A stretch of DNA of 46,733 nt from the IMG/VR virus record IMGVR_UViG_2721755711_000001. One strand, given 5' to 3'. Below, one piece after another: positions 13,803 to 34,875 of the stretch. The notes below the pieces were generated by a model. That model was not told the origin of the DNA and did not search any database. It worked only from the letters and a program-made list of their open reading frames with translations. Source of the stretch: a virus (lineage: Duplodnaviria > Heunggongvirae > Uroviricota > Caudoviricetes). A program made the translations under genes and the position numbers. Each line of letters opens with the position of its first letter. Position 1 is the stretch's first letter.

Positions 13803-14117
13803 AGTGCGTTAGGATTGTGCCCTCATCTTAAGGATATTATTGATCATGCAGATTTTCTGGGCTATGCTAAAAAAGCCCCTTATAAAACGGGGGCCGGGAT
13901 TGGAACCCCAGAATTGCATACGGCGATATTTGACGCGCCAGCGTCTTTTTTATCGTCCACGTTCACGCACGCCAGAATTATGGTGGGCTGGGCAGGGGAG
14001 CCGAAAGGCTCGCCGGTTTCCGTATGCGCCGGTAGTTCCAACCCTGTTCAGTCCGCCACCAGCGAGCTTGGAACCTCCGGTGGTGGAAGTTATCCATTGC
14101 ATACGGAGGCTGCCATC

Positions 14118-21988: not shown

Positions 21989-22206
21989 TTCAGTGATGAT
22001 ATACGTTGTATATTTCTGATACAGATGTATACACATATTTAAAACTGAACACCAAATATATTTTTGATGTCTGAAAAACTGTCGTTAGTATTCTGACTGG
22101 TCCGGAAGGTGGTTGTCTTTATGTTCACAGGGGTGTTGCTTGCCACCGGAAAGACCAGTGCTGGCTTTCCTGGTAATTCGTGTGATTCCGGAAGCCAGCA
22201 CAGTAT

Positions 22207-22281
22207 GCGGGTATCGTATAATGGCTATTACCTCAGCTTTCCAGGCTGATGATGCGGGTTCGATTCCCGCCACCCGCTCTC
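22207..22281 (+). tRNA. tRNA-Gly (anticodon UCC), left-arm copy, slightly degenerate
   Basis: Cloverleaf readable by eye: acceptor GCGGGTA, T-arm GCGGG-TTCGATT-CCCGC, anticodon loop TTTCCAG; A7-C66 mismatch; 3' end reads CTC, not CCA. Confidence 0.55.
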
Positions 22282-23166
22282 CAGTAAAACTGATGAGTCA
22301 TAGCTTTATTATCAGCACTGGCGAATTTTCGTGAAGAATCTGGTTGCGGACACTTTATTTTCTTCATTCTGTAATGCCTGGCCGGTTACAGTTTCAGTGC
22401 TGTGTTTTTTACATTGTTAATGGTATGCGTTATCAGAATGAGTCGTCGCCTGTACCGGGGCCTACGATTCGTCAGAATTGCGGTTGCAGGTTGACGACTC
22501 ATTCTGATACCGATAATTCGATACAAGTAATCCTGCTTAACTCTTACATGATGAATGCGTTAGCCCGTCTCCTGACGGGCATTTTTTTATCCATACACAG
22601 GGTTCGTACCGGCGGACCTTTTTCACATCTGTGTCCTGTACACACCACATCAGAAAACACCAGATAACACCACACAAAAGGTATCTGCGGGTGCCTTTGA
22701 CGGGGTGTTTTTTTTAAAAAAACACCCCATCAAAGGCACCCGCAGATGCCTTTTGTGTGGTGTTATCTGGTGTTTTCTGGTGTGGTGTGTGCAGGACACA
22801 GATGTGAAAAAGGTCCGCTGGTACGAACCCTGTATATGGATAAAAAAATGCCCGTCAGGAGACGGGCCAGAGCATTCATCGTGTAGTAATAGAATTATAT
22901 TTATATATGGTCGCCACCAGAATGAGTCGTCAACCTACAAAGCCACCCTGGCTTACTGTACGTGTGCGCATGGAACAGGTAACGACTCATTCTGCTAACG
23001 ACGTTTACAAGTAATAATCACATACCATTATGTAATACAAAAAAAGCAGCACTGAAACTGTAACCGTTCAGATATTACAGCATGAAGAAAAACAATAGTA
23101 CCTACAAAGCTGTTCTCCGCGAAAATTCGCCAGTGCTGATAAAGCTATGCCTCGTTTGTTTTACAA

Positions 23167-23241
<75 letters not shown>

Positions 23242-23244
23242 ATA

Positions 23245-23320
<76 letters not shown>

Positions 23321-34599: not shown

Positions 34600-34680
34600 C
34601 TGCTCCGCTGTTAATAGAATAAAACGATCGATAAAACAGGTATCGATCGTTGGTATCGATCGTTTATGGTGGTTAATGGC
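34600..34680 (+). promoter_or_regulatory. Ag43 phase-variation switch: three Dam GATC sites (expected OxyR-binding region)
   Basis: GATC at 34626, 34645 and 34658 in AACGATCGATAAAACAGGTATCGATCGTTGGTATCGATCG, upstream of the Ag43 start. Confidence 0.7.
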
Positions 34681-34875
34681 CTGCGAAAAGGCAGCTGAAT
34701 CTCTTCATCATGCAGAACGGAATTGCACACAACGGACTGAAACTTCTCTGCCTGATGAAGGGTGAGAGCGTTTACGCCCGGGGCGTATCGCTCTGCCCGA
34801 TAACTCTGTTTTGTACCTGCCGGTATCCACTTTTGTGGATACCGGCTTTTTTTATTCACCCTCTGTAAGGAAAAG

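Follow-up and report, generated by a model that had tools for sequence, protein, structure and literature searches.

A long hairpin trailing phage tRNA-Gly(UCC) genes as a probable selected RNA structure in late leaders of lambdoid E. coli prophages

This study concerns a stretch of 46,733 nucleotides (nt) from a virus of the class Caudoviricetes (IMG/VR record IMGVR_UViG_2721755711_000001), referred to in its entirety as the window, and in particular a pair of long hairpins near its middle, which we call H. An initial annotation, made from the letters alone, had described H as a conserved stem with a variable loop in both arms of the region 22434-22994 and had argued for selection on structure, suggesting a structured RNA, a processing site, or a recombination site. 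It had proposed folding both copies, a search with Rfam covariance models, and a search for the stem in related lambdoid phages. The two copies lie in an imperfect palindrome (22184-23264, centered at 22715), whose arms are 94% alike near the center and 86% alike at the tRNA-Gly genes. Read towards the center, each arm comprises tRNA-Gly, a structured element that we call U, H, an A/U-rich linker of ~50 nt, a terminator (T1), and two terminator-like hairpins. The features are as follows.

22207..22279, plus strand: tRNA-Gly(UCC) gene heading the left module
22313..22410, plus strand: element U, left copy, with a closing stem, three hairpins, and a U-run at 22405-22410
22428..22512, plus strand: hairpin H, left copy, apical type A, with a stem of 25-27 base pairs (bp); 105.5 bits with model R1
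22513..22590, plus strand: A/U-rich linker and intrinsic terminator T1 (GCCCGTCTCCTGACGGGC plus AT7, 22563-22590)
22601..22623, plus strand: T2, a terminator-like hairpin (GGTTCG..CGGACC) plus T5; its mirror at 22807-22829, minus strand
22680..22750, both strands: third terminator-like hairpin of each arm (T3 of the left arm at ~22680-22716) and the T8/A7 run of the junction at 22709-22723
22840..22909, minus strand: mirror linker and T1, stem at 22850-22867
22910..23002, sense strand minus: hairpin H, right copy, apical type B; 84.6 bits with model R1
23039..23138, minus strand: element U, right copy, the mirror of left U
23169..23320, minus strand: tRNA genes heading the right module, tRNA-Thr(UGU) at 23245-23320 and tRNA-Gly(UCC) at 23169-23241

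Both stem-loops were confirmed by their coordinates and by folding. In the left copy, CAGAATGAGTCGTC (22434-22447) pairs with its complement at 22493-22506, and this 14-nt pairing stands as first described; the perfect core, however, is 16 bp long (ATCAGAATGAGTCGTC at 22432-22447 with GACGACTCATTCTGAT at 22493-22508), such that the start given for the 16-mer was 2 nt off (22432, not 22434). The arms reach 20 nt at 95% (22428-22447 and 22493-22512, spacer of 45 nt). In the right copy, CAGAATGAGTCGT (22918-22930) pairs with ACGACTCATTCTG (22982-22994), and the arms reach 21 nt at 86% (22910-22930 and 22982-23002, spacer of 51 nt). Each copy has a perfect core of 13-16 bp within its 25-27 bp stem. 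The 13-mer of the stem occurs at four sites in the whole window, all of them in arms of H, and a perfect 16-bp inverted repeat with a spacer of 30-70 nt is expected 0.0004 times per 46.7 kilobases (kb). The sense strand of the left copy folds into a long hairpin with a minimum free energy (MFE) of -48.5 kcal/mol (z = -6.8) and that of the right copy with -46.0 kcal/mol (z = -6.2), compared to -37.2 kcal/mol for the antisense strand of the latter; for neither copy was any of 200 shuffles as good as the sense strand. There is no T-run 3′ of H in the window; a G+C-rich stem with a U-run immediately after it, the mark of an intrinsic terminator, is present in T1, T2, and U but not in H. Lacking a U-run, H is therefore not a terminator.

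The loops had been said to differ completely between the two copies. They are instead diverged homologs, with 31 of 53 aligned columns identical; homology in the outer 7-10 nt on each side lengthens the stem, whilst only the central ~30 nt have diverged. Moreover, the window copies are mirrored by construction, because both sit in the arms of the larger palindrome. They are not independent, and the evidence for selection must therefore come from relatives elsewhere.

In related Escherichia coli (E. coli) prophages there is only a single arm, followed by a fourth terminator (GGGCCGACAGAGGCCC-T6, just 5′ of the ribosome-binding site of the holin gene), the ribosome-binding site itself, and a phiP27-type holin-holin-endolysin cassette. 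The holin gene occupies the place of the palindrome center of the window, and the placement of the hairpins between phage tRNAs and lysis genes was thus correct. In lambdoid E. coli prophages this is the "moron" region, which has the late antiterminator Q on one side and the lysis cassette on the other, and every copy of H was found after U or a tRNA in a prophage late leader. Throughout the relatives, H is co-oriented with the tRNAs, U, the terminators, and the holin. It is seen with two lysis cassettes, one of the phiP27 type and one of the lambda S/R type; the latter follows tRNA-Gly-U-H in phage vB_EcoS-683R6. The three successive sense-strand terminator-like hairpins of each arm (22563-22716, plus strand; mirror at 22716-22867, minus strand) and the fourth one of the relatives look like a barrier passable only by Q-modified polymerase. 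BLAST matches to distant prophages extend from the base of H to the T-run of T1 (~165 nt); given these shared limits, H, linker, and T1 behave as a mosaic unit. As a separate observation, in SerU-LTIIb (KU052038; L180 1122-4130) the block tRNA-Gly-U-H-holin1 is tandemly duplicated upstream of the LT-IIb toxin genes.

Homologous prophage regions do carry H, and we collected 41 distinct variants from E. coli prophages, IMG/VR contigs, and two phage records. Types A and B, which resemble the window copies, occur in 24 of 5426 complete E. coli genomes, 11 IMG/VR contigs, and a few metagenome contigs, with no copy among the INPHARED phage records. Another form, type C, is present in 387 of the 5426 genomes and in two INPHARED records only. 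The stems of the window copies and of the 41 variants are 25-30 bp long and have at most one bulge or 1×1 loop. In the close relatives (17 distinct variants), 95.5% of the alignment cells are paired and five pairs show double changes, an example being the change from A-U to C-G in strain K99B. A covariance model built from H and run on 80 IMG/VR loci encoding the same holin found more sense-strand hairpins, placed correspondingly but with quite dissimilar sequences. This wide family was aligned by the arms alone (22 distinct variants). Compensatory changes are seen in 14 of its 23 stem pairs, and 90.5% of the cells are paired. Its covariation score of 0.41 compares with 0.21 in shuffles, none of 500 of which reach it, and with 0.04-0.19 in controls with slid partners. 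A scan of genome contigs with a loose degenerate pattern returned 69 chance-like loci in unrelated phyla and no enterobacterial match.

The stems also differ in quality between the two strands. There are 59 G·U pairs in the stems as against seven A·C pairs, and the mean MFE of the 41 variants is -41.0 kcal/mol for the sense strand (mean z of -6.8) versus -28.2 kcal/mol for the antisense strand. The sense strand, on which the tRNA and holin genes also lie, is the better folder in 39 of the 41 variants and scores far above the antisense strand with model R1. The difference is larger in type C (~-42 versus ~-18 kcal/mol), where each stem has 5-9 G·U pairs. The excess of G·U pairs together with the sense-strand bias indicates that the structure is selected in a single strand, namely that of the tRNA and lysis genes, and the flanking sense-strand terminators make RNA the simplest identity for that strand. 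We conclude from these sequence comparisons that H is very probably a selected sense-strand RNA structure. Selection on structure, as originally claimed, is strongly supported, although by covariation among relatives, the G·U excess, and the strand bias, and not by the pair of copies in the window from which it had been argued.

H does not stand alone. Element U is a four-way junction of ~100 nt, cloverleaf-like in shape, which begins 25-30 nt 3′ of tRNA-Gly(UCC) and ends in a U-run. Its closing stem of 7-8 bp (in the left copy, CAGCACUG at 22313-22320 with CAGUGCUG at 22395-22402) contains an invariant GCACUG/CAGUGC pairing, and its internal hairpins covary, with 8 of 19 consensus pairs double-changed among 23 variants; in all, 41 distinct U variants were found. 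Despite the tRNA-like shape, U was not called by ARAGORN and had no Rfam match. Of the 88 U copies in the loci collected, 87 have a hairpin of at least 18 bp within the next 150 nt. H starts within the U-run of U in type C, and 14-30 nt later in the window types. The downstream side is less constant: T1 lies 18-92 nt downstream of H in 25 of 42 variants, whereas the other 17 have a different conserved stretch and no terminator within 160 nt. With a constant partner upstream and alternating neighbors downstream, H is tied to the tRNA/U end and not to T1 or to a given holin. H is thereby shown to be the second half of a two-part RNA module trailing phage tRNA-Gly(UCC) genes, with U as the first half. 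The stretch that replaces T1 (…GTTCCTCAGTGCGAGGGTGGTTTAAAGAGTCGGTTTAGCGGGAAACCACAGTATCC…; L168 1960-2060 and 16 other variants, e.g., L119, L147, and L158) may be a third structured element.

Known families and annotation tools did not recognize H. The window and nine relatives were searched against Rfam 15, both at the gathering threshold and down to an E-value of ≤10, and returned only tRNAs and sub-threshold matches, with no family reaching threshold on H. ARAGORN and the Rfam tRNA model found three true tRNAs in the window, neither U nor H among them, and the Rfam Y-RNA-like models did not recognize U or H either. The open reading frames (ORFs) of 107 and 97 codons that cross H (22344-22667 and 22705-22998) had been judged probably not coding, and we agree, since Pfam holds no match to them and the variants differ by indels of 1, 5, and 6 nt that break the frames; in most relatives the region is left unannotated by PGAP. 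A small peptide starting from the AUG in GAAUG was considered and rejected, as there is no Shine-Dalgarno sequence, its length and sequence vary by type, and it has no Pfam match. An attenuator, in which the 3′ arm of H would pair with the linker or the 5′ half of T1, was likewise rejected, because folding without the 5′ arm predicted no antiterminator.

What might such a structure do? E. coli RNase III needs ~20 bp of duplex, and H, with a near-continuous stem of 25-30 bp, exceeds that length. RNase III sites are found in the antiterminated rrn operons, in stems flanking 16S and 23S rRNA, and in the polycistronic RNAs of T7. Those stems, together with T7 R1.1-type sites, the lambda N-leader, and sib, resemble H in being near-continuous RNA duplexes of >20 bp and in keeping the duplex by covariation while the apical or enclosed sequence varies; they lie between units of a transcript made by a terminator-resistant polymerase, as H would in its predicted transcript. 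Their sequences are not similar to that of H, which encloses just 25-50 nt and not a mature RNA, and most H variants keep a GAAUG/CAUUC core; cleavage of H is a prediction. As our best guess, though with a less than even chance, we tentatively suggest that H serves as an RNase III-type processing or stability signal in read-through transcripts antiterminated by Q. In a lysogen, transcripts of the tRNA genes would mostly stop at the U-run of U, and little H would be made. Upon induction, Q-modified polymerase would pass the terminator of U and the three or four that follow; H would then fold in the long late transcript into an RNA duplex of roughly two and a half turns, which RNase III could cut. 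The cut would free the tRNA/U part with a defined 3′ end and would give the downstream RNA a new 5′ end; in the window this downstream RNA would be a piece of ~80 nt ending at T1, and in intact phages it would extend into the lysis mRNA. The variability of the apex would be expected for a cleavage site, because only the duplex would matter.

Several points weigh against this interpretation, or against the RNA structure on which it is built. The 5-bp GAAUG/CAUUC core is invariant across the 22 aligned variants, which hints at sequence-specific recognition, and RNase III is not, to our knowledge, an enzyme that requires such a sequence; elsewhere, however, the core is altered with compensation, e.g., to GGGAUG/CAUCCC. 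The apex diverges strongly between types, and between types A and B its central part has been replaced while the arms were kept, yet among type C members it is well conserved and may therefore carry a function such as protein binding. The covariation was measured in related sequences with a stem-anchored alignment, which leans toward structure, and single-stranded DNA hairpins tolerant of G·T pairs would give an equal strand asymmetry. Lastly, we infer the transcription of H from its context: no promoter into H was found in a promoter scan, and the different upstream contexts share no -35/-10 elements.

The most serious alternative, though a rather doubtful one, is that H forms the 5′ domain of an Hfq-type small RNA (sRNA) of ~165 nt, consisting of H, the A/U-rich linker, and T1 (22428-22590 and its mirror), which would be made from its own promoter or by processing and act by base-pairing. 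The behavior of these three parts as one mosaic unit is what such an RNA would predict. T1 is a strong terminator, and its tail is U7, where Hfq-type sRNAs call for a U-tail of at least six, and the linker core GATGAATGC is common to types A and B. In type C, H is again followed, after ~60 nt, by a terminator, this time of unrelated sequence. Moreover, published sRNAs cluster at this very site: AgvB and AsxR lie downstream of pR′ in the moron region of lambdoid phages (PMC4104026), PasA/C/D and STnc100 have been described there as well (PMC8550237; bioRxiv 10.64898/2026.05.13.724894), mature PasA being cut from a longer transcript, and StxS is a further moron-site sRNA (PMC7547250). Like H, they sit in the neighborhood that extends from Q and the moron genes to the holin, and they are short, terminator-ended, and mosaic across prophages. 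In contrast to H, which is co-directional with the late operon, AgvB, AsxR, and PasA run against it, and there is no match in sequence or model beyond weak hits on the linker and T1, which lie off H.

AgvB (RF02702) scored 18.6 and 22.4 bits against a gathering threshold of 56, with matches at 22519-22587 and 22843-22892. STnc100 (RF02076) scored 17.8 bits against 47, with 125 model positions skipped, and 17.3 bits in one relative (L143). The other sub-threshold Rfam matches were to RprA, RyhB, CyaR, sroB, and miRNA precursors. Although the bacterial RNAs named here are all of the Hfq type, which favors the sRNA, the scores are far below the gathering thresholds, and the matches mostly reflect a terminator or a generic hairpin. 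Similarly, PasA, PasC, and PasD2 of E2348/69, taken at their published coordinates, gave blastn E-values of 0.26-4.5, with none of the matches on H. The sRNA is further disfavored by the 17 of 42 variants in which no terminator follows within the distance searched, by the tie of H to U and not to T1, by the absence of a conserved upstream promoter, and by the lack of linker conservation from types A/B to type C. It is nevertheless compatible with our preferred view of H as a processing signal, since cleavage in H could create the 5′ end of the sRNA. Taken on its own, the segment comprising linker and T1 (22519-22587, plus strand; 22843-22892, minus strand) has the general build of the 3′ half of an Hfq-type sRNA. 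In addition, 24 nt just upstream of the left tRNA-Gly (22143-22166) resemble the terminator half of PasA at 87.5% identity, which is not significant (E = 0.4).

Other alternatives treat U and H as one functional RNA. In the broader form, which we regard as unlikely, they would represent an unrecognized class of phage structured RNA, combining a tRNA-shaped cloverleaf with a long G·U-rich helix and having a trans-acting function of its own; examples would be a decoy or sensor for tRNA-targeting defense nucleases or RNA-processing enzymes, or a switch linking the maturation of tRNA to when the lysis genes are expressed. The narrower form, in our estimate distinctly unlikely, is a stable protein-binding RNA that is co-transcribed with the tRNAs, excised by tRNA-processing enzymes, and perhaps used as a decoy or cofactor for a protein of host or phage, e.g., a tRNA-targeting nuclease or modification enzyme. 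Such an RNA would explain why H follows U so regularly, why U combines an invariant closing stem with three covarying arms, why most H variants keep the GAAUG/CAUUC core and type C its apex, and why the module accompanies tRNA-Gly whichever lysis cassette is present. There is also a precedent, in that the tRNA cluster of phage T4 encodes two stable RNAs of unclear function ("species 1 and 2"). However, there is no indication of a protein partner, the apex of H varies greatly from type to type, and the tRNA and Y-RNA-like models miss both elements.

Further parallels can be drawn between the module and known RNAs. Stx phage phi24B has a hairpin precursor of a microRNA-size RNA, 24B_1, which, like the T4 RNAs, is an example of a long hairpin or stable RNA of unclear function in a phage, those of T4 lying beside tRNA genes; both differ from H in location and sequence. 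The tRNA operon glyW-cysT-leuZ gives rise to 3′ETS-leuZ, a regulatory RNA derived from its 3′ external transcribed spacer (ETS). U and H, too, lie directly 3′ of the last tRNA, and U, too, ends at an intrinsic terminator, but U plus H is much larger and highly structured, H lies past the terminator, and no sponge target is known. This RNA is named, as 3′ETSleuZ, in the supplement of PMC8550237. U-H is an unannotated module among otherwise familiar structured non-coding RNA elements of phage late leaders.

It is most improbable that H acts at the level of DNA, as a hairpin or cruciform for replication priming or recombination, or as a mosaic boundary for module exchange. Some prophage homology does break exactly at the base of H, the swap of the central apex between types A and B left the arms in place, and, because G·T is the best-tolerated mismatch in DNA, strand asymmetry alone is not decisive. 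Yet H keeps a constant orientation relative to the tRNAs, sense-strand terminators, and holin, and in type C its stem takes in the U-run of the preceding terminator. The 5-9 G·U pairs of type C would make both the DNA form and the opposite strand poor folders (~-18 versus -42 kcal/mol, with RNA parameters). In addition, H occurs in a single context and has no associated recombinase or replication gene. An end of a miniature inverted-repeat transposable element (MITE) or an insertion sequence (IS) was rejected, as the flanks GCGTT and ACCGA are not repeats, there is no target duplication, and the nearby IS200 copies are not at H. The recombination site offered in the initial annotation finds no support; the asymmetry between the strands suggests a form that is single-stranded and transcribed. 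That the hairpins are without function, as a by-product of the palindrome, a remnant of some former inverted duplication, or a piece of a coding ORF, is scarcely credible: the window copies do mirror each other as arms of a larger inverted repeat and long ORFs do cross them, but single-copy relatives have H without a palindrome, the 41 variants keep the stem by compensatory changes, and the ORFs have broken frames and no Pfam match.

E. coli prophages have been studied intensely, and yet this two-part RNA module with strong covariation is absent from Rfam 15, and a literature search found no published description of it. The U-H module is therefore a ready candidate for a new RNA family model. 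Its site, just 5′ of the lysis genes, is one that hosts toxins, tRNAs, and regulatory sRNAs in lambdoid phages. If H were indeed a processing signal, it would give the phage a way to regain defined RNA ends under Q antitermination, and would add a post-transcriptional step to tRNA supply, lysis, or toxin expression.

The palindrome itself consists of two different prophage late leaders joined head to head in the T8/A7 run at 22709-22723, with no lysis or structural genes between them. The junction lies ~45 nt short of the holin start of the relatives and was not found in any complete E. coli genome. In sample Ga0233370, the metagenome contigs L094 and L015/L097 are 99.6-100% identical to each arm, diverge from the window at the center, and run on; what lies beyond the center is the holin gene, both in close relatives and in a holin-anchored locus (L111) from the right-arm contig. 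The junction could be genuine, the outcome of a deletion between two convergent prophages, or it could be a mis-join made in assembly. Further out, the left side of the module has an ompC-like porin gene and an N6/N4 DNA methylase, and the right side has a gene for a DUF1133 (Q-like antiterminator) protein.

A number of minor observations were made at the locus and elsewhere. Between T2 and T3 there is a conserved C/A-rich tract (…ACACACCACATCAGAAAACACCAGATAACACCACACAAAAGG) at 22626-22680. [quoted passage not shown] In ETEC4067 (L182 1040-1790) a copy of IS200C directly follows the T-run of T1, and the 96-kb plasmid pPE041_2 (L088 1955-2470) carries a decayed module with an IS200 tnpA just upstream of U. 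The metagenome contig Ga0209491_10048000 (L092 1390-2800) has dense direct and inverted repeats of the CAGAATGAGTCATTC type in an unrelated context and shares only a 12-mer. Finally, the Rfam matches at gathering level included isrK (13875-13951) and C4 antisense RNA (13976-14063), both in the left prophage, as well as IS102 RNA (34624-34860) on the right.

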